Assembly (NCBI GenBank): GCA_965214295.1
Contig: OZ243944.1
Coordinates: forward strand, 821,395 to 885,394
From: Chloroflexota bacterium
Lineage (GTDB): Bacteria; Chloroflexota; UBA11872; UBA12225; JAJDUF01
Length of the DNA: 64,000 bases
Reading direction: 5' to 3'
The notes under the pieces were generated by a model. The model saw nothing but the letters and a program-made list of their open reading frames with translations, ran no database searches and was not told where the DNA came from. Positions within the stretch are counted from its first letter, which is position 1. The number at the start of each line of letters is the position of its first letter. The position numbers and the translations under genes are program-made. Positions 2,906-45,133 of this stretch are shown here, one piece after another.

Positions 2906-3607
<702 letters not shown>

Positions 3608-3640
3608 CGCACGATCTCGCCAGCAGAGCTTCCGGCCATG

Positions 3641-9184: not shown

Positions 9185-9991
9185 CTAACCCGGCCACACA
9201 AACACCGGATCACCCCGGCGGATACCTAGAACGCCAGCCGCGCTCCCCTCGCGCACGGCCAGCTCGAGGAAACCGGCGCTACCCCAGATCACCAACGGCT
9301 CACCGACCGCAGCTCCGGCATAACTCTCGACCGGACCGAGCAAGGTGTGGGTCCGTATGTCCACCCTCAGCCCGTCCCCTGGCCTAGAGAGATGCTCCGG
9401 GCGGATGTTGGCGACGGCGTTCCCGAAGTGGTCGATGTGCAGGATTTCGCCCCGCAGGCGGTCCCCGTCCCGCGTCGGCCGCGGCAAAGGTATCCCCGCC
9501 AGCGCGCCGAGGGGGCTACCGAGCCGATCCAGTGCCACGCCGGCCGCGAGGTGGGCCGCGACCGGCGCCATGATGTCGCGCCCGTGAAAAGTGTGGCTGA
9601 CCTCACTCGCTGGCACCAGCCAGTACTGCGGCTCCGTAAGCTCCACGGCTCGCCAGCTATCCGCAGCCAGCCACTCCACGATCCAGCGGAGCAGACCGTT
9701 ATCCGGCCCGACGAAGGAGTGGCCGCCGGCCTCCACCGCAATCAGCGGTCGGTCGGTCCCCACACCGGGGTCCACGACCGCGAGGTGGATGCTGCCGGCC
9801 GGGAAATACGGACAGGCCACGACCAGGTGGAATGCGCCGGCCCGGACATCCTGCGGCGGCACTGCGTGGGTCAGATCCACGACCGCAGCCTCGGGACAGA
9901 TGCTTCCGATCACCCCCCTCAGCACGCCCACGTAGGTATCCCGGCTGCCAAAGTCGGTCAGCAGGGTGATGAGCGGCCGACGAGACGGCAT
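9185..9991 (-). CDS. SAM hydroxide adenosyltransferase family protein (DUF62)
   Basis: N-terminal LITLLTDFGSRDTYVGVLRGVI and the overall about 270-aa architecture typical of the DUF62/fluorinase-chlorinase-related family. Confidence 0.8.
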   Translation of the reverse strand: MPSRRPLITLLTDFGSRDTYVGVLRGVIGSICPEAAVVDLTHAVPPQDVRAGAFHLVVACPYFPAGSIHLAVVDPGVGTDRPLIAVEAGGHSFVGPDNGLLRWIVEWLAADSWRAVELTEPQYWLVPASEVSHTFHGRDIMAPVAAHLAAGVALDRLGSPLGALAGIPLPRPTRDGDRLRGEILHIDHFGNAVANIRPEHLSRPGDGLRVDIRTHTLLGPVESYAGAAVGEPLVIWGSAGFLELAVREGSAAGVLGIRRGDPVFVWPG

Positions 9992-10230: not shown

Positions 10231-10524
10231 ATGCCAAAGGCCAGCGCAGCAGAGTCCACCTCCATGACTATTCCCTACGATGAGTTTGCTCGCAATCTCG
10301 CGGGCATCCTAGAGCAGCTCACCCCCGGCGGCGAGCCGGTCATCGTCGAGCGCAACGGCACATGCTATCAGGTTGTAGTCGCACCTCCCGCTCACCGTGA
10401 AGACCGGCGGCTCACCAGGGACGACCCGCTCTGGGAGCTTGTCGGCTCCGCGACGGATGCGCCGCCAACGGACGCCGCCAAGAAGCACGAGTACCTGGCG
10501 GATGCGTATACTCCTCAGCCGTGA
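10231..10524 (+). CDS. type II antitoxin, Phd/YefM-like
   Basis: 97 aa; MTIPYDEFARNLAGILEQL...PVIVERNGTCYQVVVAPP resembles Phd/YefM antitoxins. It overlaps the start of the downstream PIN toxin by 4 nt. Confidence 0.6.
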   Translation: MPKASAAESTSMTIPYDEFARNLAGILEQLTPGGEPVIVERNGTCYQVVVAPPAHREDRRLTRDDPLWELVGSATDAPPTDAAKKHEYLADAYTPQP

Positions 10525-10971
10525 GCATCCGAGCGGTCGGCTCCCAGTGGGTATTTCTGGATAGCTCTGGATTCTTGGCCCTAATCCACCCCCGCGATGC
10601 CCATTACCAGGAAGCACGTACCTGCTGAACGTGGCTCTCCGACCACTATTGGCTGCCCGTCACCACCAACTTCATTGTTGCCGAAACACACGCGCTCTTA
10701 CTGTCTCGCCTCGGCCACACCCATGCGACCGCCTTCTTGCGTCGGCTTCCCCAGAGCGCCACGCAGATCGAGCGAGTCACGGTCGCTGACGAGCAGCGCG
10801 CTTTGGCGATCATCTTCCAGTACGCAGATATACGCAGATAAGGGCTTCTCCCTCACAGATGCCACCAGCTTTGCGGTGATGGAACGCCTGGGGATTACCC
10901 ACGCCTTGGCGTTTGACCGCCATTTCACCCAGTACGGGTTGACCGTGCTTACATCCGCAGCACTACCATAG
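10521..10971 (+). pseudogene. vapC: vapC-like PIN-domain toxin, disrupted (in-frame TGA plus 10-bp tandem duplication frameshift)
   Basis: GTG 10521: VFLDSSGFLALIHPRDAHYQEARTC-TGA(10626)-TWLSDHYWLPVTTNFIVAETHALLLSRLGH...ADEQRALAIIFQYAD, then the duplication gcagatatacgcagata shifts the frame before DKGFSLTDATSFAVMERLGITHALAFDRHFTQYG (PIN C-terminus). Confidence 0.6.
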
Positions 10972-11008
10972 TCTCCGCCGGGCTGTGCCGCCCCGGCACT
11001 CGGCGGCG

Positions 11009-12304
11009 CTAACCCACGTAGCTGATCCGGTAGATCGCGTTGGTGCGGTCATCGGTGACGTACAGACTGCCGTCGCTCCCAACCACCGGCTCGACGGGGC
11101 GCCCCCAAGCGTCGGCCGGACCGCGCGGTCCGGTGAGCCAGCCACGCGCGAAGTCGAGCGGTGGCTGCGGCTGACCGTTGATAAACCTGATGCGGACCAC
11201 CTTGTACCCGGTGGCCTCGCTCCGGTTCCACGAGCCGTGGTAGCCGACGAATAGATCGCCCCGGTAGGCCGCGGGAAATTGCTCCCCGTCGTAGAAGGCC
11301 AGCCCCAGCGGCGCCGAATGCGCCTGCACCGGCACCGTCGGCACCGTCAGATCGGCGCAGGACGGGTTCCGCGCCGGCACGCGGTCATCCACCACCCAAG
11401 CACCGTCCCCGCGCTGATAGCAGAAAGGCCAGCCATAGTGCGCGCCCTCCTGCACCCTCGTCACCATGTCCGGCGGGATGTCATCGCCGAGCAGGTCCCG
11501 CTCGTTCACCACCGTCCACAGCTCGCCGGTCGCCGGGTTGATCGTCAGACCAACCGGATTACGCAGCCCGGTGGCATACTGCCGCCCGTCCGTCCCGTCC
11601 CGCCGGTACTGCATCACCCCGCCGCGCCGCCCGTCCCGCTCGATACACACGTTACACGTAGAGCCTAAGGACACGTAGAGCAGCCCGGCGCCGTCAATGG
11701 CCAGCCCGCGATAATGATGCGCGTGGCACCCCGATTCGGGCAGCCCGTCCACAATCACCTCCGGCGACCGCACCGCCAGCTCGCCGGGCACGTAGGCGTA
11801 GCGCACGACCTGCCGCGAGAGCGCCACGTACAGCGCACTCTCGTGAAAGACCATGCCGTAGGGACAATCGAGGCCGGTAGCTACCGTCTCTACGCTGTCC
11901 ACCACCCCGTCGCCGTTGCGGTCGGGCAATCCGACGATCCTGCCCCGCCCCGGCAGCGTGGCGTACAGGTCCCCGTTGGGCGCCACGGCCATCGTCCGCA
12001 CCCCGGGCAGGTCGGCCGCGAAGACGCTGATCCGAAAGCCGGAGACCAGCTGGAGTTCGCGCGGCCGGGCAAACGGCCCCTGCTGGAACTGTGTCGGCAC
12101 TTGGAGCGGCGTAGCGACCAGTGTCCGCGTATCAACCGCCAGCGCCGGTGCCTCCGGCGCGGCAGTAGGTGCAGCCGCTACCTCAGCGACCGGCTGCGTG
12201 GACACCGCGGCCGGCGCCGCCATCTCCCCACACGCGACGACAGCGACTCCGGCTACCAGCAGCACCACCGTAAGCGCCAGCGACCGCCAACCAACCAAGA
12301 CCAC
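11009..12304 (-). CDS. PQQ-dependent sugar (glucose/sorbosone) dehydrogenase family lipoprotein
   Basis: Signal peptide with a lipobox-like AVVAC, then beta-propeller GSDH motifs (GLAFYDG, LYVTDD, HYGWP). Confidence 0.8.
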   Translation of the reverse strand: MVLVGWRSLALTVVLLVAGVAVVACGEMAAPAAVSTQPVAEVAAAPTAAPEAPALAVDTRTLVATPLQVPTQFQQGPFARPRELQLVSGFRISVFAADLPGVRTMAVAPNGDLYATLPGRGRIVGLPDRNGDGVVDSVETVATGLDCPYGMVFHESALYVALSRQVVRYAYVPGELAVRSPEVIVDGLPESGCHAHHYRGLAIDGAGLLYVSLGSTCNVCIERDGRRGGVMQYRRDGTDGRQYATGLRNPVGLTINPATGELWTVVNERDLLGDDIPPDMVTRVQEGAHYGWPFCYQRGDGAWVVDDRVPARNPSCADLTVPTVPVQAHSAPLGLAFYDGEQFPAAYRGDLFVGYHGSWNRSEATGYKVVRIRFINGQPQPPLDFARGWLTGPRGPADAWGRPVEPVVGSDGSLYVTDDRTNAIYRISYVG

Positions 12305-12476
12305 ACCTCTGATCCGTCAGGTCCACACCATATTCCGGCCCCGACCGGAATCTACGTCCTCCTGCCATGCGGAGGGACCATAGGGGCCCAGCCATCATCC
12401 CGTCATTGCCGCGCCTCCGGCAATCCACCCCCTCTCTACATGGTGGAGAGGGGGCTGGGGGGTAAGGCCCGCTCAC

Positions 12477-12725
12477 CTACTCCCCCGCCGGCCGCTCGGC
12501 CAGCTGTGCCAAGTAGCGCCCGACCTCGTAGGCGTCGGTATCGATCAGGAGGTGCCCGTCTATCTCGACGACCGGCGCGAGCCACTGCCCCGACTTTTCC
12601 ACCATCTCGTCGAAATACCGCCGATTGCCGTAGACCTCGCGCTCCTCATACACGATCCCGCGACTATCGAGCAGACTGAGCACCTCGTAGCACCAGCCAC
12701 ACCCCCGCTTCGTGTACACGATCAC
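12477..12725 (-). CDS. glutaredoxin/NrdH-like redoxin
   Basis: CxxC active site in VIVYTKRGCGWCYEV; GTG start at 12725 chosen because the upstream part of the ORF is repeat-derived. Confidence 0.6.
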   Translation of the reverse strand: MIVYTKRGCGWCYEVLSLLDSRGIVYEEREVYGNRRYFDEMVEKSGQWLAPVVEIDGHLLIDTDAYEVGRYLAQLAERPAGE

Positions 12726-12850
12726 CCGCTCCGGACCGGTGCGCGGCGTCCCTGACACGCCAGACGCGCACCGCCCCTCCCACCATCGTGCATGTCTGGC
12801 GTCGTCACCCCCGCCATCACGCCCGCCGTTGCTTCCCGTCATCGGCCCAC

Positions 12851-13447
12851 TCACCCCTGCTCAGAGAGCCTCAACCGCCCCAGCGTCGTCACCGCCGCGC
12901 CGGCCTCCACCATCTCCGCAATCGCCCGCTCCGCATCCCCCGGTCCCACGTTCACACCACGGATAGCGTCGAGCAGCACCGTCGCGCCAAAACCGGCCCG
13001 CAGCCCGTCCAGCACCGTCGAACGCACGCAGTAGTCCGTTGCCAGCCCGCCCACGAACAGGTGCCCCACTCCAAGCTCCCGCAACGCCGCCGCCGCCCCG
13101 GCCCCCCGCGCCGCACGGCCCTGAAACGCCGAGTAAGCATCCTCGGTCGGATCGTCGCCTTTCGTCACGATGACCGCACCGTCCGGCAGCCGCAAGTCCG
13201 CGTGAAACGCCGCCCCCGGCGTGTCCTGCACGCAATGTGGCGGCCACAGCCCACCACCCGACTGGAAATGCACCGTCTGTTCGGGATGCCAGTCCCGCGA
13301 GGCCAAGACCGGCAGCCCAGCGGCGGTGAAGCGGGCAATGTACTCATTCAACGGCGCCACCACCTCATCGCCCCTGCCCACCGCCAACGCCCCACCCGGA
13401 CAGAAGTCGTTCTGCACGTCGACCAGCAGCAACGCCCCCGTGCCCAT
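12851..13447 (-). CDS. pncA: isochorismatase-family hydrolase, nicotinamidase-like
   Basis: 198 aa from ATG 13447: LLLVDVQNDFCPGGALAV, catalytic Cys in GLATDYCV. The longer 385-aa ORF is a read-through of the upstream tandem repeats. Confidence 0.85.
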   Translation of the reverse strand: MGTGALLLVDVQNDFCPGGALAVGRGDEVVAPLNEYIARFTAAGLPVLASRDWHPEQTVHFQSGGGLWPPHCVQDTPGAAFHADLRLPDGAVIVTKGDDPTEDAYSAFQGRAARGAGAAAALRELGVGHLFVGGLATDYCVRSTVLDGLRAGFGATVLLDAIRGVNVGPGDAERAIAEMVEAGAAVTTLGRLRLSEQG

Positions 13448-13595
13448 CGTCCCTGGCCTCCCTCCCCACACTCTAGCACACCCCCACCAGGGATAGATAC
13501 AACCCAAGCCGTAGGGGCGCTCACATCCGTCATTCCCGCGCAAGCCGGAATCCGCGCCCCCCGCCACGCGGGAGGACCACAGGGGGCAGACCATC

Positions 13596-13860
13596 CACCC
13601 CCTCTCCAAATGTTGGAGAGAGGCCTGGGGAGTGAGGAATACCCCTCCCCCCGCCGCCTTCCCCCCCTCTCCAAATGTTGGAGAGGGGGCCGGGGGGTGA
13701 GGAATACCCCTCCCCCCGCCGCCTTCCCCCCCTCTCCAAATGTTGGAGAGGGGGCCGGGGGGTGAGGAATACCCCTCCCCCCGCCGCCTTCCACCCCCTC
13801 TCCAAATGTTGGAGAGGGGGCCAGGGGGTGAGGAATACCCCTCCCCCCGTTGTCTTCTCC
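13596..13860. repeat. tandem array, 4 copies of a 65-bp unit containing the palindrome ccccctctccaaatgttggagaggggg + ccggggggtgaggaatacccctccccccgccgccttcc
   Basis: Direct head-to-tail copies at about 13597, 13664, 13729, 13794; they translate to PLSKCWRGG...GVRNTPPP in several frames. Confidence 0.85.
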
Positions 13861-14460
13861 CCACTCCCACCCAATATGACCCAACGTTGGGATGTGGCAG
13901 TTGCAAGACCATCCTGGAGCACCGGGCACCGCCCGGCAGGAAAGCACACCTACCATCGTGTCTACCAACGACGGTGGCATAGCCACCCAGCCGAGGGCGC
14001 CGGGTCACGGCCGACCCCTCACCGCACAGCCGGCGGTGAGGCCTGACCGTCCGTGCGCCGCGCCACGCGGACCGGTCCCCGACCGCTCCCGCCTAGCGCA
14101 AAGGGCGCCGGATCAGCACGTACCCCGGGCCACCACGGCCCGGGCGCCGGGTGCTGATCGTCCGCGCGCCGCGCCTCTGGCGCCGGGGCCACGCCGCCCC
14201 CGCCACGCGCAGATGGCGCCGGGTGCTGACGTACCCCTCGCCACCACGGCGGGGGCGCCGGGTCCGCACCGTCCGTGCGCCGGCACTGCCGTGCCTCGCG
14301 CCACCGCGTCCCTGCCGGCCGGCCGCCGCTGGCTGCGCCAGGTAATCTTGCCCCGCGTCCCTGCCACTCCCAACACCCTGATTGCCGCGTATCCGCACTC
14401 CCGCTCCATCGCCTCGGCCTTCCCCCGCCAGCACGAATCCAGGCTGCCGCCCGCCACCCC

Positions 14461-14493
14461 GGTAGGGGCGCAACATGTTGCGCCCGTCCCCCC
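14461..14493. repeat. palindromic repeat family gtaggggcgcaacatgttgcgcccgtcccc (other copies 21196-21228, 23470-23503; variants near 22885, 35990, 44090, 46205)
   Basis: Perfect 30-bp palindrome recurring in intergenic spacers. Confidence 0.8.
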
Positions 14494-14828
14494 GCTAAGT
14501 GGGGGAACCACAAGGGGAGCCGGGCGGCGGCCCGCCCAGGTCGGTACCGCTGGAGCGACTATCCCCACCTCTCAAGTGCATCCTGCCACCCAAGTTCCGC
14601 CCTGCCCGCGGTCTTGCTCCACCGCGGACACGGGCTGCCCCCACCCGCACTCCGCCCGCGCCCCTCCCTCATACACACCCACCGGTGCCAATGCCTTCTC
14701 CCTTCTCCACATGTGGAGAGGGGACCCGGTCGGGTTGTTGTGCGTGTTGATGATGCCCCCCCTCTCCACACATGTGGAGAGGGGCCGGGGGTGAGGATTA
14801 GAGGGGGCATACTGACCCCTAGCCACTG

Positions 14829-16949
14829 CTATGGGCACAGCGGCGTGAACAGCAAGCGCGGCTGCCAATACGCCAGCGACGGGTCCGTGGGGCCACTGCC
14901 CCGGCGTGGCCCCCCGCCCGCCGTCTCGTACCGGCCGACGATGCCATACAGCGCCACCCACTCCCTGGCCCGGATCCGGTTGCACCGCCACTCCACTTCC
15001 CGCACCGCGAGCAGTGTGAAGCGTGCCGGGTCGGCGAGCGCCGCGCGGACCGCCAACGGCCACCGTCCATAATGGGTGGACGACACGTGCAGATACGCCA
15101 CGCCGAGCCGCTCGATGGCCGCCGCGTCGAGCGTCCCCAGCGCCGCCGCATAGTCGCCGGTATCGCCGTTGATGAAGTGCGGCGCCAGGGTGGACGGCGC
15201 CAAACGGCCAGCCAGCGACGCCACCCACTGCGGATTGTCGCTGAGAATCCGCACCGACGGCGGCACCAGCTCGACCACACGTGCCGCCAGCTGCACCTGC
15301 GCCGGACGCAATGCGGGCATCTTCGCTTGTAGCCCGTCCGGCGGCCATAGCGAAATAGCAAAGCTGAGACCCATATAGGTCGAGCCGAGCACAAAGACGC
15401 CCAGCAGCACATAGGCCAAGCGGTTCCAGCGCAGCCCCCGGGTCACCTCCACGGCGGTCAGCGCACAGAGCACTAGCCACAAGTAGCCCGCCGTCCGACT
15501 GAACGCGGCCATTGCAGCATCATCCCGCGCATACTCAAGCACTAGCGGCACGACAAACCCGCTCACCGCCGTTGCCAACAGCCACGACTTCAACGGCGTC
15601 GGGCGGTGCCAGCACCACCACACCACCACCGGCAGGAGCAGCAACGGCAAGCCATACTCGGCCAGCAGCACTTCCCACCACCACCCGCCATCGAGCTGCC
15701 CCACGTCCCCGGCCAGCCGGGGCCATCCCGGTGGACTACGCCAGCCGAGACTACTGCCCAGCGGCAAATCGCGCGCGCGCAGCAACAGGTCCGTGACGGC
15801 GCCGCCGGACAGCGAGCCTACGCCCAGAGTCGCCAGCAGCAGCACGCCATCGCGCCCCACCGCCCGCCACCCCCCGTCCCCGCTCGCCAGCGTCACCCCC
15901 GACCGACGCAGCCGGCCGACCGCCAGCCGCCCGGCCCGCAGGCCGACAACGGCCGCCGTCCCCGCGAGCAGGAGCACGAAGTCGCTCGTCGCGGCTAACG
16001 CCGTTGCCCCGCCGATGAGTACCAGCAGGCCCGCCGCCAACCACCACGTCCGCGGCTGCCGCGAAAGGGCGTGTACACTGAGCCACCCGTGGCTATAGGC
16101 AATGAGGCACACCAGCCCCAAGGCCGAGGGATGCTCGTGGACGATCAGGGCGAGAGCTTTGAACAGCTCGCCCATAACAATCGGCTCGGACTGCATGCCG
16201 ATGAGCGGCCCCTCGGCGTGTGTCAGCCAAAAAGGCAGCCGCTCGGCAAACCATCCCGGTACCCAGCCGCCACCGAAGAAGACGAAGAATGCCCCCACGA
16301 CCGCCAGGTTCATCGTGGCGCCAGCGCGCCGCAGGAGGGCCGCGACGCCCCAGAAGACCGCCAGCGCGACCACCAGGGTAATGACATCAATGGACCACCA
16401 TACGGGCAGTCCGCTGAGGTGGTGTGCGGCCGCGGCCAGCAGCGCAAAGCCGTAGTGATACACCGCCGGCCATGCCGGCCAGAACGGCAGCCGCGGCGGG
16501 AAGTTGCCCTCGGCGATGGTCGCCGCCAGCGGCCAGTGCTGCAATTCCTCGTCGTACAGCAGCGTTGCGAAGGCGCCAGCCCCCACTGCCCCCATAACCG
16601 CCAGCCCGGCGACAAGCCAGATGAGCGTGTCGGCGGCGTCTACCGGCGCGCTACGCTCCTCGTCAGCCGCTCGGTCAGGCGTGGCCGCCCTGCGCTGCCA
16701 CCACCACCAAACCACCGCGGCCAGCGCGAGGAGACTGGTGCTCAGGCCGGCCGCCCACCCGGCCGGTACGATGAAGGCCAGAGCGTTTGTTGCTACCAGG
16801 CCCAGCGCGAGACCTACCCCCGGCGCCACGCCCCACACCACGTCGGCCGCGCCCAAGCGCCAGCCCCACCGGGCCGCCGCCCAGCCGACGATGACCACCC
16901 CGGCAATCCAGAGCACTGCTACGACCATTCGTTCACCTGGCTGGCCCAA
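14829..16949 (-). CDS. large polytopic membrane protein (possible ArnT/PMT-like glycosyltransferase fold), function unknown
   Basis: 706 aa with more than 12 hydrophobic helices and Trp-rich loops; no diagnostic motif recognised. Confidence 0.5.
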   Translation of the reverse strand: MGQPGERMVVAVLWIAGVVIVGWAAARWGWRLGAADVVWGVAPGVGLALGLVATNALAFIVPAGWAAGLSTSLLALAAVVWWWWQRRAATPDRAADEERSAPVDAADTLIWLVAGLAVMGAVGAGAFATLLYDEELQHWPLAATIAEGNFPPRLPFWPAWPAVYHYGFALLAAAAHHLSGLPVWWSIDVITLVVALAVFWGVAALLRRAGATMNLAVVGAFFVFFGGGWVPGWFAERLPFWLTHAEGPLIGMQSEPIVMGELFKALALIVHEHPSALGLVCLIAYSHGWLSVHALSRQPRTWWLAAGLLVLIGGATALAATSDFVLLLAGTAAVVGLRAGRLAVGRLRRSGVTLASGDGGWRAVGRDGVLLLATLGVGSLSGGAVTDLLLRARDLPLGSSLGWRSPPGWPRLAGDVGQLDGGWWWEVLLAEYGLPLLLLPVVVWWCWHRPTPLKSWLLATAVSGFVVPLVLEYARDDAAMAAFSRTAGYLWLVLCALTAVEVTRGLRWNRLAYVLLGVFVLGSTYMGLSFAISLWPPDGLQAKMPALRPAQVQLAARVVELVPPSVRILSDNPQWVASLAGRLAPSTLAPHFINGDTGDYAAALGTLDAAAIERLGVAYLHVSSTHYGRWPLAVRAALADPARFTLLAVREVEWRCNRIRAREWVALYGIVGRYETAGGGPRRGSGPTDPSLAYWQPRLLFTPLCP

Positions 16950-17191
16950 AGCTCCACGATCTTATCGTTCCCAATGCGGTGCAGCTTTGGCCAGCTACCA
17001 TTCAGGATAGTACCGTTGACGCGCCAACCCTGCACCATCCGCTGACCACTGGCTACTGGCTACTGGCTACTGACTTGGTGGGAGGCTACAATCAGGAGGG
17101 ACGTGCCCGGTGGCTTATACTATCTCGATAGTGCCACCCGCGGCGCGCAACAAGACGACGGAGACGACATAGCGTGCAACGCGCTCTACGT

Positions 17192-17654: not shown

Positions 17655-17770
17655 GGAGACCTTTGCAGAAGTCGTCATTCCCGCGAAAGCATGTCCCGTA
17701 CCCCGATACGGGGCGGGAATCCGAACAGCGGCCCTCCCAGGTTGGCGAGCGTGGAGTCACGACCACTGAG
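17655..17770. repeat. about 115-bp MITE-like element built around gtcattcccgcgaaagc-atgtcccgtaccccgatacggggc-gggaatcc (second copy 20508-20625)
   Basis: Near-identical copies at 17655-17770 and 20508-20625 share the flanks gagacctttgcagaagtcgt and ggccctcccag...gtcacg. A shorter form is at 2625-2700. Confidence 0.8.
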
Positions 17771-17856
17771 CACGCCGTCCTGGTGGTTATGCAAAGGTCC
17801 CCACAGGGAGCACAGCATGCTGCGCCCGACCACCGTACCCCAGTAGCGAGGCGGAT

Positions 17857-19632: not shown

Positions 19633-19962
19633 CCTCTCCCCAGCCTGGCCATCGTTGATATAGCTGTTGAGTTGGCCTAGAGCGTGTCTGCAAACTAGCT
19701 TTTAGGTAGGGGCATCATTCATGCCCCCCCATCATGGCAACTCCCCTCCCGTCATGGCAGCTCCCCTCCCGTCATGGCGGCTCCTCCCCGTCATTGCGGC
19801 GCAGGCCACAATCCAGGCCCACCAGGAAGCCACGCATCGCCCTCTGCCGACTGGTACTTTGCAAACACGTCCTAGTTCAGTTTTCTCAGCACCACTAGGG
19901 GGAGCCAATCCGGTTAGGCATGACCCCGGCCACACTCCCGCTCCCTATGCCTTTGGCCCAGA

Positions 19963-20424
19963 TCAACGAGCGTGGCCGACCAGCGTGAGATTGGTCACGT
20001 GCCCGGCCAGCTCCTCGTCACTGAGCCGCTCGCTGGCATCGGGATGCGGCGGAATGACCATCGCCCGTCGTGCCGGGTCGGTATCGATGATCTTCAGTTC
20101 CAGGTCCTCGCTGAGGCGCAGCCCCATAGCCAGCAAGGTACCGGCTGCATCGCGGTTGATCTGATCCTTGTAGTCCGGCGCCTTCCAATACGCCGGTGCG
20201 GCGGTGAGCCACCCCGGATAACAGGAGCACGGCGTACACACGATGGCGTGGTGGATTGAGCCGGTATTGTCGTGTACCTCCAACGCGATGTCCTCCGCAT
20301 ACTCGATACCCAGCTCCATGAGCGCCGCGCGCGGATCCGCCAACAGCCGCGCTTTGTACGCGGGATCGGTCCAGGCTTTGACTACGACCTGCGCTGCCGG
20401 GTCGGCTGCCGTCTGCTGCATCAT
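19963..20424 (-). CDS. nitrile hydratase alpha-subunit-like protein (orphan, N-terminally short)
   Basis: VVVKAWTDPAYKARLLADPRAA..., IHHAIVCTPCSCYPGWLTAAPAYWK (metal-binding C-S/T-x-C-S-C cluster) and C-terminal LKIIDTDPARRAMVIPPHP...LVGHA align along the NHase alpha fold. No beta subunit is adjacent. Confidence 0.7.
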   Translation of the reverse strand: MMQQTAADPAAQVVVKAWTDPAYKARLLADPRAALMELGIEYAEDIALEVHDNTGSIHHAIVCTPCSCYPGWLTAAPAYWKAPDYKDQINRDAAGTLLAMGLRLSEDLELKIIDTDPARRAMVIPPHPDASERLSDEELAGHVTNLTLVGHAR

Positions 20425-20655
20425 CCCGTGTCTCCTCTCCGTGTTCTCTGTGCGCTCTGTGGCCCAAAATCCTTCCATGTCGTGCGGCCCACTCGCCAAC
20501 CCACTCAGAGACCTTTGCAGAAGTCGTTATTCCCGCACAAGCATGTCCCGTACCCCGCTACGGGGCGGGAATCCCAACATCGGCCCTCCCAGATGGGCGG
20601 GCGTGGCGTCACGGCCACGGAGCACGCCGTCCTGGGAGTTATGCACAGGTCTCAC

Positions 20656-21138
20656 TCAGAAGTAGATGCGGGTGAGCGTCTCGGCGACCATACCGGGCCG
20701 TTCCTGGCCTTTTACCTCCATGGTCTGCTGGTACATGAGCTGCAGCGCCTGCGGCTGGCCATCCGGCCCGGCCCCAGGCTTGATAGCCTCTACGTCGAGC
20801 AGCCTGGTGCGGAGCCGAATCCGGTGCCCTACCGGCACCGGCCCCGGAAAACGCACCCGGTTAAGGCCGTAGTTGATGGTCATACGACACGGCAGATTGA
20901 TCCGTATGCCGTCGCGCTCGCGGCTCAGTCGCGTGACCAGTGAGAGCGTGAAGTAGCCGTGCGCGATGGTCCCGCCGTACATCGTCTGCCGCGCCCGCTC
21001 GGGGTCCACGTGGATGTACTGGTGGTCACTGGTGAGATCGGCAAACGCCTGCACCTGCTCCTGGGTGACGGTAAGCCATGGGCTGACGCCCAGCTCCTCC
21101 CCAACGAGCGCCCGGACCTCAGCGATTGACGACGCCAT
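20656..21138 (-). CDS. MaoC-like (R)-specific enoyl-CoA hydratase, hot-dog fold
   Basis: 160 aa; the YIHVDPERARQTMYGGTIAHGYFTLSL motif is typical of the MaoC dehydratase family. Confidence 0.85.
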   Translation of the reverse strand: MASSIAEVRALVGEELGVSPWLTVTQEQVQAFADLTSDHQYIHVDPERARQTMYGGTIAHGYFTLSLVTRLSRERDGIRINLPCRMTINYGLNRVRFPGPVPVGHRIRLRTRLLDVEAIKPGAGPDGQPQALQLMYQQTMEVKGQERPGMVAETLTRIYF

Positions 21139-21634
21139 CCCTCTACCTCCCTACATGAGCTATAGCACGCTGCACCCGTCCCCCCGCCGCCAACGCCGTA
21201 GGGGCGCAACATGTTGCGCCCGTCCCCCGCACCGGAGACCTTTGCAAAATCGTCATTCCCGCGCCAGGAGACCTTTGCGTAATCCGTCATTCCCGCGCAA
21301 GCGGGAATCCAAAAGCGACACCTCCCAGGTGAGTGGGAGGTGAGCATGGCTACCCCAGCACTTCATCCGGGTAGTTATGCAAAGGTCTCCGCCAGCGGGA
21401 ATCCACCCCCTCTCCCCGTGGGAAAGGGCTGGAGTGAGGGCCGCTGGAGTGAGCGCAGCCTCAGCGACGGACCGGCACCGCCATCGCTCCCCTGCCCTGC
21501 CAAGGAAGGGGCCGGGGGGTAGGCCCAATCCGCCCCACACAAAAAACTACCCCTGTCATCACCATCTCCCAGCCTCGACTTACTCCCCCTCTCTATCGCT
21601 TGGCGATGGAGAGGGGGACGGGGGTGAGGATAGG

Positions 21635-22837
21635 TCAAGCAAAGGCCGACTCTCCCGTGATATCCCGCCCTACCGCCAGCGTGTGTATCTCGTGTGTGCC
21701 CTCGTAGGTATACACCGTTTCCAAGTTGACGGCATGGCGCATCACGCCATAGTGGAGGCGAATGCCGTTGGCGCCCAACATGGACCGCGCCGTCCGCGCT
21801 ACGTCCAGCGCCAGCGCCACGTTCGTCCGCTTGCCCAGGCTCACCTGCTGGTGGCGGAGTCGGCCGGCCACTTTGAGCCGGCCCAGTTGTACGGCGAGGA
21901 GCTGGCCTTGGGTGATGCCCGTCAGCATATCCACCAGCTTCTGCTGGGTTAGTTGGAACGCCGCGAGAGGCTTACCGAACTGTATCCGCTGCTTGGTGTA
22001 AGCCAATGCCGTCTCATAACAGGCCATCGCTGCACCCACCACACCGAAAATGATCCCAAACCGCGCCTCCGTGAGGCAGCGCAAGGCCGCGCCTAGCCCC
22101 ACCGCGCCCGGCAGCAGCGCATCGGCCGGCACGCGGCAGTCGGTGAAGGTCAGCTCCGAGACCGCCGCGGCACGCAACGAGAGCCGATCCTCGATGTCGC
22201 GAGTAGAAAAACCGGGTGCCAAAGCCGCACGGATGGTGCCAGGTGTGGCGCGGCTTTGGCACCCGGACCGGTCACGCTCGACGAGAAACCCGCGAATGCC
22301 CTCCGGTGTGCGGCCCCACACGACCGCGATGTCCGCCAGCGAGCCGTTACCGATCCACGTTTTCGTGCCGTTGAGCACCCAGCCGTTGCCATCGGGCGTC
22401 GCGGTCAGCTCCATCGCGCTAGGGTCCGAGCCATGCCTCGGCTCGGTCAGGCCGAAACAGCCGATCAGTGTCCCTCGCGCCATCTCCGGCAGGTAGCGCC
22501 GCTGCTGCACCTCGGAGCCATACGTGTAAATCGGGAACATACACAACGCGCTCTGAATGGAGAGAAAACTGCGGAGGCCGCTATCGCCCCGCTCCAATTC
22601 CTGGCAGGCCAGCCCATAGGCCATCGGCGTCAGGCCCGTCCCCCCCGTCCCGTCAGGAGGGAGCGTGCCGCCGAGCAGCCCCAGCTCGGCCAGCCGCGGG
22701 ATCAGCTCCGTCGGAAAGCGCCGCGCCTCGAAACAGGCCGGAATCAGCGGTAGCGCCTCCTCCTCCACGAACTGTCGCACCCGCTGTTGGAGCTGGCGAG
22801 CGTCGTCGGGTAGCTCGATGTCCAGATAGTTCAGCAT
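21635..22837 (-). CDS. acyl-CoA dehydrogenase (glutaryl-CoA dehydrogenase-like)
   Basis: 400 aa with ACAD N-terminal, middle and C-terminal domain signatures (GCFGLTEPRHGSD, TWIGNG, YEGTHEIHTL). It carries an in-frame insertion of the palindromic element at 22214-22264. Confidence 0.9.
   Translation of the reverse strand: MLNYLDIELPDDARQLQQRVRQFVEEEALPLIPACFEARRFPTELIPRLAELGLLGGTLPPDGTGGTGLTPMAYGLACQELERGDSGLRSFLSIQSALCMFPIYTYGSEVQQRRYLPEMARGTLIGCFGLTEPRHGSDPSAMELTATPDGNGWVLNGTKTWIGNGSLADIAVVWGRTPEGIRGFLVERDRSGCQSRATPGTIRAALAPGFSTRDIEDRLSLRAAAVSELTFTDCRVPADALLPGAVGLGAALRCLTEARFGIIFGVVGAAMACYETALAYTKQRIQFGKPLAAFQLTQQKLVDMLTGITQGQLLAVQLGRLKVAGRLRHQQVSLGKRTNVALALDVARTARSMLGANGIRLHYGVMRHAVNLETVYTYEGTHEIHTLAVGRDITGESAFA
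22214..22264. repeat. 51-bp palindromic element inside the acyl-CoA dehydrogenase CDS (in-frame)
   Basis: gggtgccaaagccgc-acggatggtgccaggtgtggc-gcggctttggcaccc; it encodes ...SGCQSRATPGTIRAALAPG... within the ACAD. Related copies are at 34504-34547 and 55309-55359. Confidence 0.8.
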
Positions 22838-22903
22838 GTCGTTGATCCTGTCTCGCTGACCGCTTGGTTAGCACTATCCAGAGGGCTACGGCATGCTGCG
22901 CCC

Positions 22904-23341
22904 CTACGACCGCAGCGGGCCGGGGCGCGGCCGGAACTTGGGCAAGGCTATCTCCGGTGTCACATCGTCGTACACCACCTCGACGGGCAGACCGACGTGT
23001 ACGTGTTGTGGATCGGGAGTCACCTCCACGAGATTGCTCATCATCCGCACGCCCTCGTCCAGCTCGATCAGGGCCACGACGTAGGGAGTATCCGCGCGAA
23101 AGGCGGGCGTGGAGTGGTAGTGGACAATCGTGAACGCATGCACCACTCCCCGACCGCTCACCGGCACCCACCCCAGGTCCCGGCTGAAACAGGCCGGGCA
23201 GTGCATCCGCGGATAGAACACGTACCTCCGGCACACGCTACACCGCTGGATGCTCATCGCATGCGCCTTAACGCTGTCCCAGAATGGCTGCGTCACCGGG
23301 TCGGGCCGCGGCAGCGGCTTGCTGTAGCCGTCGTCAGTCAT
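22904..23341 (-). CDS. Zn-ribbon/OB-fold protein (DUF35), thiolase partner
   Basis: C4 ribbon CSVCRRYVFYPRMHCPAC followed by an OB fold; it sits immediately upstream of an SCP-x-type thiolase, as is typical. Confidence 0.8.
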   Translation of the reverse strand: MTDDGYSKPLPRPDPVTQPFWDSVKAHAMSIQRCSVCRRYVFYPRMHCPACFSRDLGWVPVSGRGVVHAFTIVHYHSTPAFRADTPYVVALIELDEGVRMMSNLVEVTPDPQHVHVGLPVEVVYDDVTPEIALPKFRPRPGPLRS

Positions 23342-23555
23342 CGTGTCCCGTTCTCCACTCCGAGACCTTTGCATACCTCGTCATTCCCGCGAAAGCGGGA
23401 ATCCACCGAGGCAACTCGCACTCCGACTCGTCCACGGGTAGTCATTCCCGCACCAGCGGGAATCCACCGCCGTAGGGGCGCAACATGTTGCGCCCGTCCC
23501 CCCGCACAGCGGGGGGACCATAGGGGGGGCCGGTATTATCCTCACCATCTGGTGC

Positions 23556-24707
23556 TCACACCCCCAAGATCGCCGTGCCGGTTGCCGACAGCACCCCGCC
23601 GGTGCCGTGTACGAGCGCCAGCCGCGCGCCAGGCACCTGTCGCTCTGGTTGGCTGGCGGCAGCGTAGTCCCCCCGCAGCTGCCGGACCGCCTCGATGATC
23701 GTGAAGATGCCGAACATACCAGGATGGGTGTAGGACAGCCCGCCGCCCTGAGTATTCAGCGGAAAGTCGCCACCCGGGGCGGTGCGTTGGCCGGAGACGA
23801 AGGCGCCCCCCTCCCCCTTCCGGCAGAAGCCCAAGTCCTCCAGGGAGAGCAGCACGGTATAGGTGAAGCTGTCGTAGATTTCGGCCACGTCAATGTCACC
23901 ATGGCGGACACCGGCCATGGCAAACGCCCGGGCGCCGGATACCTGCCCTGGCCCCACCGTCAGATCGGGCATCTGGCTGATGATCGCGTGGTCGTGGTGC
24001 TCGCCAAACCCCAGCACGGCAACCGGCTGGCGCTGGGTATCTCTGGCCCGATCCTTGCCGGTCAGTACCACCGCGCCGCCGGCGTCCGTCACGAGACAGC
24101 AGTCCAGCAAGTGGAACGGCCAGCTAATCCAGCGGCTCTCCAGCACGTCGGCAATGGTCAACGGATCGCGCATCAGCGCTTTCGGGTTCAGCGCGGCCCA
24201 CTTGCGCGTCGCTACCGCGATCTCGGCCAGCTGCTCGTGCGTCGTGCCATAGCAGTGCATGTGGCGCGCGCAGGCCATCGCGTAGGCGCCCAGCGGTCGC
24301 GGCAGCCCCCACGGCTCCTCGAACTGTGCGGCGTTCCGGCCGTACAGGTCGGGCGGCGGACCGCTCTGGCGCGAGCGCCCGACCTGGCCATGGCTAATCA
24401 GCGCCACCCGACAGAGTCCGTTGGCGATGGCGCTCACGGCATGACCGACATGGATGACAAACGACGAGCCGCCGACGTTCGTCCCGTCGGTGTACGTCGG
24501 CCGAATACCGAGGTATTCGCCCAACTCGATGGTCGAAAGCCCGGCGGCGAACAGCCCGTCCACCTCATCCTTCTCGATACCGGCATCGGCCAAGGCATTC
24601 TGCGCCGCCTCGGCGTGAAGCTGCAGCGCCGTCTTGTGCGGCACAACGCCGAGCTCATCCGACTCGGCGACGCCGACGACGGCCACTTTCCCAGTCAGTG
24701 CATTCAT
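23556..24707 (-). CDS. thiolase-like protein (SCP-x / lipid-transfer-protein type, non-acetoacetyl)
   Basis: 383 aa; thiolase fold with catalytic-Cys region (VAVVGVAES...) and a C-terminal GG-rich loop; paired with DUF35. Confidence 0.88.
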   Translation of the reverse strand: MNALTGKVAVVGVAESDELGVVPHKTALQLHAEAAQNALADAGIEKDEVDGLFAAGLSTIELGEYLGIRPTYTDGTNVGGSSFVIHVGHAVSAIANGLCRVALISHGQVGRSRQSGPPPDLYGRNAAQFEEPWGLPRPLGAYAMACARHMHCYGTTHEQLAEIAVATRKWAALNPKALMRDPLTIADVLESRWISWPFHLLDCCLVTDAGGAVVLTGKDRARDTQRQPVAVLGFGEHHDHAIISQMPDLTVGPGQVSGARAFAMAGVRHGDIDVAEIYDSFTYTVLLSLEDLGFCRKGEGGAFVSGQRTAPGGDFPLNTQGGGLSYTHPGMFGIFTIIEAVRQLRGDYAAASQPERQVPGARLALVHGTGGVLSATGTAILGV

Positions 24708-25122
24708 AGCCTATACTGCCCCGGCCGGCCCCTCTATGGTTCCCTGTCAAGGGTAGTTTTGGGAGAGGGGCGCGATTCATTGCACCGCCCCGTCATTGCG
24801 GCGGAAGCCGCAATCCATGCCCCCTGACTGTAGCTCGGGGACGGTCCGTTGCCTCCCCTGGATCTTGCTCCGAAGGAGGGCTAAGGAGCCGACAAGGGTA
24901 GGTTTTTTGCGGAGGGGCGCGATTCACCGCGCCTACACGCTGGTCATTCCGCCTGCACCGGGTAGTCCAGGGGCGAAAGCATATCCCGTACCCCGCTACG
25001 GGGCCGGAATCCAGGACCATTCGTGGCCCCCGGTCCGTCTGGATGCCGGCTTCCGCCACCATAAGGGAGACCGAGGAGAGGTACGTAGCTCCACACACAA
25101 AAACCTACCCTTGTCAGCGAGA

Positions 25123-26103
25123 TCAATCCTGCTCCCAGAACCGCACCCCGGGCGCCACGTCGCTGCCACCCGCGGGAATTTGGTCGAGTACGCTGAACGC
25201 TCCCCCGACCGCAGGCGGCGGGTGCAGATCGCTGCCGAGGGTGGTCGGCACCAAGGCGCGTAGCTCCTCCGGCTCCCAGCGTCGTGAGTGCCGTAACCCG
25301 CGGATGAAGCGCGGCTGCGCCAGCAGTGCAATCTCGTAGCCAAAGCTGCCAAAGACCTGGCCGTTGACCGCTTGGGCCGCGTCGCTGGCGAGGTAGACCA
25401 CCAGCGGCGCTACGTTGTCGGGGTCGCGCTCCGTCCCGGCGGCCGTTTCACTCGGCCACTTCCCCGTCTGCTCGAACTGCTCCTGGGCACGCGGCGTCGT
25501 GTCAATCATCCGCGTGTCGGCGAACGGCATGATCGCGTTGGCCGTCACGTTGTAGCGCGTCAGCCCATTGGCACAGGACCGGATCAGACCCAGAATCCCG
25601 GCCTTGGCCGCACCGTAGTTGGGCTGTCCCGGCGCACCCAGCGCCGAGGTCGAAGAGAAGGCAATGATGCGCCCGGAGCGTTGCTGCCGAAAGCGCTGCG
25701 TGGCCGGATGAATCACGTTGTACGCGCCCTTGAGGTGTACCGCTATCACGGTGTCCCACTCGTCCTCGGTGAGATTGAAGATCATCCGATCACGCAAGAT
25801 ACCCGCCGTATGCACCACAATATCAATCTTGCCGAAATGATCCACGCAGTCCTGGACCATCTGCTGACCTTGGGCATGGTCCGTGACCGATCCGGTATTG
25901 GCAACAGCCGCACCACCGGCGGCGCGAATCTCCGCAACGACTTGGGTGGCCGGGCCACGGTCAGCACCCTCGCCCGTGAGTGAAGCGCCGATGTCATTGA
26001 CTACCACGCTCGCTCCGGCTCGCGCCAGCGCCAGCGCAATGCCCCGCCCGATACCCCGTCCGCCGCCCGTGACCAAGGCCGTCTTGCCCTCAAGCATGCC
26101 CAT
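25123..26103 (-). CDS. short-chain dehydrogenase/reductase (SDR) with about 65-aa C-terminal extension
   Basis: TGGGRGIGRGIA Rossmann motif, YGAAK catalytic motif. Confidence 0.88.
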   Translation of the reverse strand: MGMLEGKTALVTGGGRGIGRGIALALARAGASVVVNDIGASLTGEGADRGPATQVVAEIRAAGGAAVANTGSVTDHAQGQQMVQDCVDHFGKIDIVVHTAGILRDRMIFNLTEDEWDTVIAVHLKGAYNVIHPATQRFRQQRSGRIIAFSSTSALGAPGQPNYGAAKAGILGLIRSCANGLTRYNVTANAIMPFADTRMIDTTPRAQEQFEQTGKWPSETAAGTERDPDNVAPLVVYLASDAAQAVNGQVFGSFGYEIALLAQPRFIRGLRHSRRWEPEELRALVPTTLGSDLHPPPAVGGAFSVLDQIPAGGSDVAPGVRFWEQD

Positions 26104-26175
26104 CGTATCTCGCCCGTTTCCTCTCCGGCTCCCGTCTCGTCACTGCGGCGGAAGCCGCAGTCCAGGCCCCTTCCG

Positions 26176-27516
26176 TCATTCCCGCGCAAGCGGGAATCCA
26201 TCCGCACACTGCACAATGCCCTGCTCGGCCCATTCGGCCACCGTCTCCGGCGAGCAGCCCAGCATGTCAACCAGCACGGCCTCGGTGTGCTGGCCGAGCA
26301 ACGGCGGCGGTCGCGGCGGCGCGTCCGGGTGAGCACCGCGGTCGGCCGGCCGGCCATAGCGCCAAGGTAGCACCGTAGTAGGCACCGGGCCGATGGGATG
26401 ATCCAGCTCACGCACCAGCCCGCGCGCCTGCACTTGCGGGTGCGCCGCCACGCGGTCCATCGTATTGATCGGGCCACACGGCACGCCCTCCCGCTCCAAC
26501 CGCGCCAGCCACTCGTCGGCCGGCCGCGTCCTGAACAAGGCTTCCAGCTCCGGCAAAAGCTGGTCGCGGTGGCGCACCCGGTCGCCGTTCGTCGCAAAGC
26601 GCGGATCGGCGGCGAGGTCCGGCAGCGCGACGGCGCGGCAGAAATGCTGCCAGAGCCGGTCGTTGTTCACCGCTATGGTGATCTCGAACGTCGCTGTCTC
26701 GAAAACCTGGTAGGGCACAATATACGGCAGCGCATTGCCCATCCGTCCCGGCAGCTTCCCGGAGAGCAGTGTGCCGACGAGGTGATACCCGAGCAGGGAG
26801 ACCTGCCCCTCCAGCAGCCCCACGTCAATGTATTGCGCCGCCGCCCTGTCCGCGTGCGCGGCTCGCTCCCGCGCCAGCAGCGCCCCGAGCAGGGCGGCCA
26901 GCGCGTTGGTCCCGGCGAGAATATCCGTTTCCGCGACCCCGGCCTTCACCGGCGGTCCGTCCGGGTGGCCGGTGACACTCATCATACCGGCCTCGCCTTG
27001 CATAATCAGGTCATAGCCGGGTTTCCAGGCATCCGGCCCATCCTGACCGTAGGCCGAGATCGAGCAATACACCACGTTGGGACGGACCGCACGCACTGCC
27101 TCATAGCCCACCCCCAGCCGGTCCGCGACCCCGGGGCGAAAGTTCTCGATCACGATATCCGACTGCGTGGCCAGCTGGAGACAGAGCCGTACCCCCGTCG
27201 CGTCCTTCAAGTCGAGCGCCACGCTGCGCTTGTTGCGGTTCATCGAGAGAAAGTAGGAGCTTTCACCGCCGTAGAAGGGCGGGCCCCAGTGCCGAGCCTC
27301 ATCGCCGGTCGCCGGTCGCTCGACTTTGATAACATCGGCGCCCAAGTCACCCAGCAGCATCGTGCAGTACGGTCCGACCAAGGCACGAGTCAGGTCGAGC
27401 ACGCGGTAGCCGGCAAGCGGCAGCGCCGCAACGAGCGGCTGTGATGCGCCAGGTCTGCACCGCCTATTTCCAGTTGATTGTGCAGCCCTGGCGGCGTCAT
27501 GCGAAGAGAGACTCAT
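26176..27516 (-). CDS. family III CoA-transferase (CaiB/BaiF-like)
   Basis: LAGYRVLDLTRALVGPYCTMLLGDLGADVIKVE signature. The start is possibly internal, and the last about 8 codons come from a REP element. Confidence 0.85.
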   Translation of the reverse strand: MSLSSHDAARAAQSTGNRRCRPGASQPLVAALPLAGYRVLDLTRALVGPYCTMLLGDLGADVIKVERPATGDEARHWGPPFYGGESSYFLSMNRNKRSVALDLKDATGVRLCLQLATQSDIVIENFRPGVADRLGVGYEAVRAVRPNVVYCSISAYGQDGPDAWKPGYDLIMQGEAGMMSVTGHPDGPPVKAGVAETDILAGTNALAALLGALLARERAAHADRAAAQYIDVGLLEGQVSLLGYHLVGTLLSGKLPGRMGNALPYIVPYQVFETATFEITIAVNNDRLWQHFCRAVALPDLAADPRFATNGDRVRHRDQLLPELEALFRTRPADEWLARLEREGVPCGPINTMDRVAAHPQVQARGLVRELDHPIGPVPTTVLPWRYGRPADRGAHPDAPPRPPPLLGQHTEAVLVDMLGCSPETVAEWAEQGIVQCADGFPLARE

Positions 27517-33685: not shown

Positions 33686-33706
33686 GCGCTATCGAAGGTC
33701 CGCCGG

Positions 33707-39782: not shown

Positions 39783-40999
39783 CAGTTCTTCTCCACCGGC
39801 GACGTGCGCGGCAGTATTCCCCGTTGCAGCTGCTCGCGCGCCGCCCGGTCCCGCCGTTCTTTATCCAAGATTTGCGCTGCCGTCGCATCCTGCGGAGTGG
39901 GCGCCGGTTGCTCCTGCTGCCCAAGAGCCGGCTGTTCACCGGCCCCCGCCCCCTCGGGCTGCGCCGCAGGAGTAGGACTTTGCCGACCTGACGCATCAGG
40001 CGTGTCCTCCTGCCCCTGTGACTGCTCCTGCGGAGCGCCGGCTGTTCCCGCGTCGTTGGGATCACGCAGCGCCTGCATCGCGGCTGCGATGTCCTCGGCC
40101 GCGGCGCGCTGGTGGGCGGCGGCTGAACGCGGCTCCTGGCCTTCCAGCCGCTCCTCGGCACGCTCTTGCTGGCTCTGCGCGTCTTGCAGCTTTTGCAAGG
40201 CTTCCTGGCGGCGCTCGTCGCCGGCATCCGGCGTTGCGGACGGTGACGGCGTTCCCGACGGTTGCGCCGACCCCGCCTGCTCTTGGAGCTGCTCTGCCGC
40301 GGCGGCAGTTTCCTCGCTAATCCGTTGCTGCTCTTGCCGGAGCTGCTGCAGTGCCTCCGCCGCGTCCGGCGGCGGCTCGTTTGCCAACTGCGTCGACCTG
40401 GCCGCGGCGTCTTCCTGTCGCTGCTGCAAGTTCCTGAGCTGCTCGGCTACCTCGTTCTGCGCTTGCTGCGCCTGCTGCTGGTCCTGCAGTTGATCGAGGA
40501 TGTCCTTGATGGCGAGCCGGACCACCTCGATGTTGCGGGCGGCCTCTTGGTCATGCGGAGTAAGCTCGAGTGCCCCCTGGTAAAACGCCACGCTTGCTTG
40601 GAGCGCGGAGAGTGCCTGCTGCACGTCACTCTCGCGCTGCGCCATGCCTTGCCGGAACTTACTGTTGCCGAGGTTGTACCGGGCCGCGGCCACAAGCTCC
40701 AAGTCCCGCGCCGTCCGATCCACCTGCCGGAAGCGTTGCTCCGCCTCGCCGTAGTCGCCCAAGGCATACTGAGCGACGCCCTGGTTGTAGGCCACCTCCG
40801 GCGAATCCGGGAGCTGGGCCGCTGCCGCGGTATAGGCCTCCAGCGCCGCCGCGTAGTCCTGCCGGTCGAAGAGCGCATTGCCCCGGCCGACCTCATCCCC
40901 CGGCCCGGCCGCGGGCCGGCCTGGGGGAGCGCACGCACTCAACGCGGCCCCCCACAGCACAATGAGGAGGACAATGGCGCTAGGTCGTCTTGCGTTCAC
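39779..40999 (-). CDS. BatC-like TPR protein with Gln/Glu-rich coiled-coil tail
   Basis: Lipoprotein-like signal, TPR repeats, then a long EQ-rich low-complexity region. Confidence 0.7.
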   Translation of the reverse strand: MNARRPSAIVLLIVLWGAALSACAPPGRPAAGPGDEVGRGNALFDRQDYAAALEAYTAAAAQLPDSPEVAYNQGVAQYALGDYGEAEQRFRQVDRTARDLELVAAARYNLGNSKFRQGMAQRESDVQQALSALQASVAFYQGALELTPHDQEAARNIEVVRLAIKDILDQLQDQQQAQQAQNEVAEQLRNLQQRQEDAAARSTQLANEPPPDAAEALQQLRQEQQRISEETAAAAEQLQEQAGSAQPSGTPSPSATPDAGDERRQEALQKLQDAQSQQERAEERLEGQEPRSAAAHQRAAAEDIAAAMQALRDPNDAGTAGAPQEQSQGQEDTPDASGRQSPTPAAQPEGAGAGEQPALGQQEQPAPTPQDATAAQILDKERRDRAAREQLQRGILPRTSPVEKNW

Positions 41000-43048: not shown

Positions 43049-43057
43049 GCCTCCAAT

Positions 43058-44068: not shown

Positions 44069-44188
44069 CGCAGGTACGGGCCATGTCGTAGGGGCACAGC
44101 ATGCGGCACCCGGGCCCCTGCGGAGCGAGGGGACCATAGGGGTGCCGATGTTGCATCTACCCACAACCATTGTGCCGTTCCGTTCAGC

Positions 44189-45064: not shown

Positions 45065-45133
45065 GGAGTCTCCCGATCACCAGATCGGCACCATCGAATG
45101 CCAGCGGTAGCGCAGACCCGGCGCGTCACCGGC

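Follow-up and report, generated by a model that had tools for sequence, protein, structure and literature searches.

A short, probably free-standing nitrile hydratase alpha-like protein family with a conserved cysteine claw in uncultured Chloroflexota

Nitrile hydratases (NHases) serve as catalysts in industry, and work on their unusual metal site, with its oxidised cysteines, has always dealt with complexes of alpha and beta subunits. In the canonical enzymes, the beta subunit supplies two arginines that hold the oxidised cysteines, together with most of the substrate pocket. A gene in a 64,000-nucleotide stretch of a Chloroflexota genome (contig OZ243944.1, positions 821,395 to 885,394; the whole stretch is called the window here) raises the question of what an alpha subunit could be doing where no beta gene accompanies it. 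A preliminary description of this DNA had called the gene an orphan and had left its product as either a stand-alone metal-binding protein or a remnant. The analysis below arrives at the first of these readings, and in a more specific form: with a probability of about one half, the product is a functional, free-standing, globular NHase alpha core that would bind a low-spin trivalent metal, mature itself and act without a canonical beta subunit, likely as a Lewis-acid hydratase.

The open reading frame begins with two successive ATG codons, and the Shine-Dalgarno-like sequence GGAGAGGAG ahead of them (Table 1) is the reason for which the start at 20424 is favoured over an alternative in-frame TTG at 20499, which would add 25 residues, runs into a repeat element and is unconserved in relatives. 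The product matches the Pfam family NHase_alpha (PF02979) at an E value of 4.6e-37 over profile positions 35-183 of 184, and its score of 127.6 bits against a cutoff of 27.2 places it within the domain superfamily. The alpha chains of solved Co-type NHases are matched at E values of 1e-30 to 1e-33; the relationship to NHase alpha is thus real and far beyond chance, and the near-complete alpha core with an intact metal claw that had been noticed at first sight is borne out. All of these matches to solved chains run from about residue 55 onward. Approximately 45 N-terminal residues of canonical alphas are missing, within the 40-60 proposed earlier, and with them the arm that wraps around the beta subunit. 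Accordingly short is the distance to the first claw cysteine, which is residue 63 in the window protein as against residues 70-136 in the CTLCSC alphas retrieved, while the C-terminus (...LTLVGHAR) ends three residues past the alpha domain. In one close relative (L001), the gap between the preceding gene and the start codon measures just 75 bp, leaving no coding room upstream for an N-terminal arm. A scan for promoters and terminators around the gene gave nothing informative.

Table 1. Positions of the alpha-like gene, its neighbours and other features, counted from the first letter of the window.
Feature	Positions	Strand	Basis	Remarks
Short NHase-alpha-like CDS, 153 aa	19963-20424	(-)	ORF listing, sequence, Pfam	stop codon (19963-19965) included
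Metal claw codons C63-T64-P65-C66-S67-C68	20221-20238	(-)	read from sequence	equivalent to Cys108-Cys113 of Pseudonocardia thermophila alpha
Shine-Dalgarno-like GGAGAGGAG	20432-20440	(-)	sequence	7 nt upstream of ATG
144-nt repeat element, inverted termini GAGACCTTTGCA...TGCAAAGGTCTC	20508-20651			spacer between MaoC gene and alpha-like gene
144-nt repeat, second full copy	17656-17799			90% identical
144-nt repeat, partial copies	21235-21387, 23362-23396, 24977-25012, 241-288
MaoC-type dehydratase	20656-21138	(-)	Pfam	upstream same-strand neighbour
Beta-oxidation-like row: acyl-CoA dehydrogenase, ChsH2-type OB-fold protein, thiolase-like protein, SDR, family III CoA-transferase	21635-27516		Pfam
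Tandem repeat, 20-nt unit CCCTCCCGTCATGGCAGCTC, 3.6 copies	19724-19794			convergent intergenic region, ~170 bp beyond alpha-like stop codon
Short matches related to the CCCTCCCGTCATGGCAGCTC repeat	24782, 48584, 60961, 61044
Conserved ORF, 706 aa	14829-16949	(-)		hydrophobic-looking, no Pfam or NCBIfam match; 82-86% identical in clade-1 relatives
Conserved ORF, 169 aa	19123-19632	(+)		hydrophobic-looking, no Pfam or NCBIfam match; ~60% identical in clade-1 relatives
Amidase-signature gene	33686-35203	(+)	PF01425, E 1.9e-121	13 kb from alpha-like gene
BatA/BatD-VWA-DUF58-MoxR (AAA_3) aerotolerance-type operon	37812-46129	(-)

The predicted structure points the same way. AlphaFold2, run on the protein chain alone with neither metal nor partner, returned a model with a pLDDT of 93.2 and a pTM of 0.87 from a 120-sequence alignment (pLDDT 72.8 with 11 sequences only), a model that is biased to the canonical fold because canonical alphas dominate the alignment. 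Foldseek superposed it on solved NHase alphas with TM scores of 0.83-0.87 and an rmsd of 2.0-2.4 Å over about 147 columns; with the gamma subunit of thiocyanate hydrolase (SCNase) included, the query TM scores span 0.80-0.87 and the rmsd 2.0-2.6 Å. The modelled secondary structure consists of two units, each of three helices and a beta-hairpin, with the claw at the end of the first hairpin, in agreement with ECOD, in which NHase_alpha is a duplicated LigA-like domain. Judged by this model, the window protein is exactly the globular alpha core, without the arm.

Is this an isolated curiosity? A search of 5.8 billion proteins recovered an identical protein (P0001) on a 4.23-Mb contig and, among the matches listed, short relatives of 147-153 residues with 43-89% identity, after which the next-best matches were ordinary alphas of 196-200 residues at about 45% identity. 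The short relatives comprise approximately 45 sequence clusters, every one of 147-153 residues, and score 213-296 bits on the family profile, whereas canonical alphas reach at most 155 bits, a clear gap that marks the family as discrete. When 1.84 billion representatives at 50% identity were searched exhaustively with HMMER, only P0122 and P0219, both full-length members of the short family, and fragments scored above 141 bits. Scanning one genome per GTDB species for the pattern gave 23 loci, all of them (23/23) in Chloroflexota MAGs and many on complete chromosomes of 3.3-4.4 Mb. The short family was monophyletic in 199 of 200 neighbour-joining (NJ) bootstraps, in a set that counts as members P0011, P0147 and P0149, which carry C-terminal frameshifts or extensions. 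P0150, the nearest full-length alpha in a first NJ tree, was discarded as a relative after grouping with the short family in 0 of 200 bootstraps; its contig yielded no genomic context. Four lineages can be distinguished, namely clade 1, to which the window protein belongs, clade 2, the divergent P0219 and a marine (TARA) lineage. The source databases hold no name for any short member, and literature searches found no described stand-alone alpha family. What is new here is a truncated, probably free-standing NHase-alpha family specific to Chloroflexota, for which those searches returned no description. It is a discrete, conserved family, found only in uncultured Chloroflexota, and the word orphan fits the gene for its lack of a linked beta or activator gene and not as a one-off.

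Separately from this family, other short alpha-like proteins of 158-175 residues were encountered (P0272, P0288 and P0311). The first has a CTPCSC claw, and its gene (L035, 786-1280) overlaps flanking genes, one of them weakly NosD-like; the claw of P0288 reads CVPCSC, and that of P0311 reads GVPCSC, so that its first claw cysteine is absent. Loss of the N-terminal part of alpha may thus have more than one origin.

These data also decide the suggestion that the gene is a decaying remnant of an NHase operon. The protein is truncated relative to canonical alphas, and repeat elements flank the gene, as would be expected of such a relic, but a length of 147-153 residues is kept across some 45 clusters and at least 23 Chloroflexota genomes, pairwise dN/dS has medians of 0.16 (clade 1) and 0.10 (clade 2), and the gene has a strong Shine-Dalgarno sequence and an intact claw. 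The short family is under purifying selection, and because selection maintains the gene, the remnant reading is contradicted and was rejected as scarcely credible.

Which residues selection has kept was examined in an alignment of 42 short members and 208 canonical alphas, numbered according to the Pseudonocardia thermophila alpha subunit, with the register checked by the mutant names in PDB entries (aT109S, aY114T, aW116R and aS162A). The claw of NHases reads C-(S/T)-L-C-S-C, and the window protein has all of its positions (C63, T64, C66, S67 and C68) except that Pro replaces Leu; Tyr69 and Pro70 follow directly (VCTPCSCYP). The three cysteines and the serine are invariant in 42/42 short members and the threonine is present in 40/42, while the position of Leu110 is occupied by Pro in 39/42 and can also be Glu, Gln or Lys. 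The marine lineage carries CSECSC or CTQCSC, and P0219 carries CTKCSCW. The Leu-to-Pro exchange, which the preliminary description had singled out as an oddity, is typical of the short family and yet not unique to it, because CTPCSC also occurs in full-length alphas that adjoin beta genes, namely those at L030 (an Acidimicrobiales MAG), L031 (Dankookia sp. P2) and L032 (a Rhodospirillaceae MAG); it is present in the 194-residue alpha P0093 too.

Beyond the claw cysteines and serine (C108, C111, S112 and C113), the residues kept in both groups are W63, N98, H103, T109, Y114, P115, D161 and R167. Thr109 and Tyr114 constitute the signature of Co-type enzymes, Fe-type enzymes having Ser and Thr at those positions. 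A second set is near-invariant within each group and differs between them (E97D, L110P, P122A, W125Y/F, Y126W, R132K, R140A, S162T and Y168A), and a third, invariant in canonical alphas, varies among the short members (G55, R134, R174 and R192). Gln89 and Trp116 are deleted in the short family, and alphaGlu165, the equivalent of the alphaGlu168 of the Pseudomonas putida enzyme that is mutated in PDB 3qz5, is not conserved. Altogether, the short family has exchanged or dropped about a dozen residues that are invariant in canonical alphas, and it has invariants of its own, including a C-terminal G-H-x-R motif that ends the protein.

The beta subunit was sought in several ways. Three divergent betas and an activator-like ORF taken from L030-L032, which detected one another at 1e-5 to 1e-18, gave zero tblastn matches in the 64-kb window or at any Chloroflexota locus. 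An HMM of three beta sequences, run against all six-frame ORFs of at least 40 residues, reached a best E value of only 0.65 outside L030-L032. By these two methods, no beta subunit or activator lies within 10 kb of the 23 related genomic loci, and no beta-half genes of the thiocyanate-hydrolase kind were found. Pfam scans of 40 window ORFs revealed no NHase_beta (PF02211), CobW-type GTPase, cobalt transporter or RiPP maturase. A linked beta gene is absent from the window and from the 10 kb around 23 loci; the lack of nearby beta, activator and SCNase partners had been read correctly from the window.

An ordinary alpha subunit could still pair with a beta subunit, or with split betas, encoded elsewhere in the genome, and split or rearranged NHase gene sets do exist, such as that of Dankookia with two beta-half ORFs. 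We consider this improbable, given that the beta-clasping N-terminal arm is absent in every member and that the canonical invariants have been rewritten. Moreover, the genomic loci without a beta gene represent four different contexts, and short members score 110-120 bits on the NHase alpha equivalog model TIGR01323, the cutoff of which is 249.85 (120.1 bits, less than half the cutoff, for the window protein); on the same model, four full-length Co-type alphas score 238-307 bits and the outlier P0150 scores 199.

Genomic context differs from lineage to lineage. In clade 1, the alpha-like gene stands at the downstream end of the beta-oxidation-like row, of which the MaoC gene is the last member, with a convergent membrane-protein-like gene next. 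The row is syntenic in clade-1 relatives and absent from the other three lineages; the MaoC gene and the row are context and not a demonstrated partner. In the marine lineage, the gene has SHMT upstream and an AP_endonuc_2 TIM-barrel gene downstream. In clade 2, a LigC-like Gfo/Idh/MocA dehydrogenase gene lies directly downstream, followed by a CehA/McbA-family metallohydrolase, archease and RtcB; what precedes the alpha-like gene varies. No neighbour common to all four lineages was found, and the context offers no consistent substrate clue. The clade-2 row (L016-L029 and L033, ~10500-17100; L034, 1-372) also holds an AIRS-domain protein, its metallohydrolase is 830 residues long, and the JGI name of its dehydrogenase is 2-hydroxy-4-carboxymuconate semialdehyde hemiacetal dehydrogenase.

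The LigC-like gene, the only repeated association, suggests a further possibility, namely that the short alpha assists or regulates another enzyme, such as this dehydrogenase, as one of its small subunits, with the LigA-like fold acting as a partner-binding module. The gene follows directly in 15/15 clade-2 genomes, even where the upstream gene differs; P0219 has an orthologue of the dehydrogenase (55-60% identity) divergently upstream; and ECOD files NHase_alpha with the LigA-like domains, a group that includes regulatory subunits. This neighbour is, however, present neither in the window's clade nor in the marine lineage, its family of at least 649 members far exceeds the alpha-like family, and an accessory role would leave the conservation of the claw unexplained. 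The coincidence of a LigC-like neighbour with the ECOD grouping alongside LigA may be just that; we regard the neighbour as a lead, not a finding, and the accessory role as a long shot.

The immediate surroundings in the window are as first described, that is, repeats and a MaoC dehydratase. The 144-nt element in the spacer looks like a MITE or REP-type element and, as RNA, folds strongly (-76 kcal/mol, z -3.3); the 75-bp spacer of L001 is too short to hold it. A tandem repeat lies in the convergent intergenic region on the other side of the gene, and two conserved ORFs and an aerotolerance-type operon complete the features recorded in the window (Table 1). Nothing indicates that the amidase-signature gene is linked to the alpha-like gene; between the two lie transhydrogenase, aminotransferase and nuclease genes.

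How such a protein might work can be proposed from its conserved residues. The core consists of two LigA-like repeats that flank the Cys-X-X-Cys-Ser-Cys claw, and the family has lost the N-terminal arm that clasps beta in canonical enzymes; it has kept the metal site along with some of the second-shell residues, and has rewritten many residues that are invariant in beta-dependent alphas. The claw is predicted to hold a low-spin trivalent metal, most likely cobalt (or else iron), because the Co-type Thr-...-Tyr signature is present. Maturation would proceed by oxidation of the protein's own claw cysteines, Cys66 and Cys68, as in NHases, and the mature protein would need no canonical beta subunit, acting either by itself or as a homo-oligomer. 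As a small Lewis-acid hydratase, it would likely act on a C-N multiple bond of the nitrile type.

Since the pocket and the two arginines come from beta in canonical enzymes, a lone alpha core would be expected to have an exposed, incomplete active site. The serious rival to a hydratase, unlikely as we judge it, is accordingly a non-catalytic metal or redox protein, whose claw binds, buffers or donates cobalt or iron, or senses oxidants through sulfenic and sulfinic cysteine chemistry, with no turnover. Residues that shape the pocket or contact beta are gone (Gln89 is deleted, Glu165 varies and several invariant arginines are replaced), the linked genes include no amidase, aldoxime dehydratase or other member of a nitrile pathway (the amidase closest by is 13 kb away), and the context varies between lineages. 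Against a purely metal-handling role, the Co-type second-shell residues T109, Y114, D161 and R167 have been retained, which is more than simple metal binding needs, and ToyJ, an alpha subunit discussed below, is described as active alone.

A bolder form of the hydratase reading may be put forward tentatively. The family could represent a 'minimal nitrile hydratase', a 150-residue, single-subunit, Cys-claw cobalt enzyme that matures and catalyses without beta or activator, and in which residues of its own (the C-terminal G-H-x-R, R119/R120 and H59 are candidates) possibly replace the beta arginines; its substrate or chemistry may be non-classical, and, of extant forms, it might stand nearest to an ancestor that lacked the N-terminal arm and that gave rise to NHLP leaders once the claw was deleted. 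If the free-standing reading is true, a beta-less core of 150 residues under selection would offer a compact system in which metal insertion into the claw, self-oxidation and catalysis could be studied alone, and it could reveal a new physiological role for the NHase metal site in marine and uncultured Chloroflexota.

Among known systems, the leaders named NHLPs, which belong to proteusin/TOMM-type RiPPs (TIGR03793), share with the window protein the same starting point, without the alpha N-terminal arm, at a KAW-D-P-x-(F/Y)-K motif, and also a second motif, LS-(D/E)-E-(E/Q)-L. In NHLPs, the similarity to alpha flanks a deletion of about 63 residues in which CxxCSC is lost, and a Gly-Gly cleavage site and then a core peptide follow (Haft et al., PMC2887384). 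The window protein, unlike these, keeps the claw segment of about 63 residues and has neither a Gly-Gly site nor a core peptide. Genes for maturation or export (cyclodehydratase, LanM, radical-SAM or ABC/HlyD) were found neither among the 40 window ORFs nor in related loci. It does pass TIGR03793, with 60.7 bits against a cutoff of 50.9, but this pass does not discriminate, because canonical alphas score 68-75 bits and every NHase alpha tested scores 60-75 (P0001, P0013, P0219 and P0010 included); the short family is no closer to NHLPs than they are. An NHLP-type RiPP precursor or leader-like peptide is thus contradicted and very improbable, as the preliminary description had already held. Since TIGR03793 is the only NCBIfam model that the short family passes and TIGR01323 is failed, automatic pipelines are likely to mislabel its members as RiPP precursors or as bona fide NHase subunits.

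The gamma subunit of thiocyanate hydrolase (2DD4 chain C) has the same fold and claw as the window protein at a lower similarity, and on the corresponding model (TIGR03887) the window protein scores 98.7 bits against a cutoff of 291.45. SCNase requires alpha and beta subunits, which are beta halves, and genes of this kind were found neither in the window nor at related loci. Beta halves were observed elsewhere, in the three-gene NHase-like cluster of Dankookia sp. P2 (NZ_CP192581.1; L031, 9204-10468), in which ORFs 9204-9503 and 9597-9869 encode the N- and C-terminal halves ahead of a 200-residue alpha with CTPCSC, an arrangement that resembles SCNase or ToyJKL. In the Rhodospirillaceae MAG (L032, ~3312-3965), an in-frame stop separates the N- and C-terminal halves of beta, which might mean that the beta is split, that the sequence contains an error or that the gene is a pseudogene.

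The closest structural counterparts are the Co-type NHase alphas of Pseudonocardia thermophila (1IRE), Pseudomonas putida (3QXE) and Bacillus smithii (1V29), which have the same core fold, 37-41% identity to the window protein over about 145 residues, and an identical C-T-x-C-S-C-Y-P claw that includes the Thr and Tyr of Co-type enzymes; D161 and R167 are shared as well. The window protein differs from them in lacking some 45 N-terminal residues and an adjacent beta or activator gene. A functional parallel is ToyJ, the alpha subunit of the three-subunit toyocamycin NHase, which is likened to the window protein here by its published description and not by sequence. ToyJ is encoded and works with the beta halves ToyK and ToyL, whereas the window gene has no linked beta-like gene; nevertheless, according to the account of Nelp et al. 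(2014) given in PMC7329996, ToyJ alone is catalytically active and fully modified, and so provides a precedent for a lone alpha subunit that binds cobalt, oxidises its own cysteines and hydrates a nitrile.
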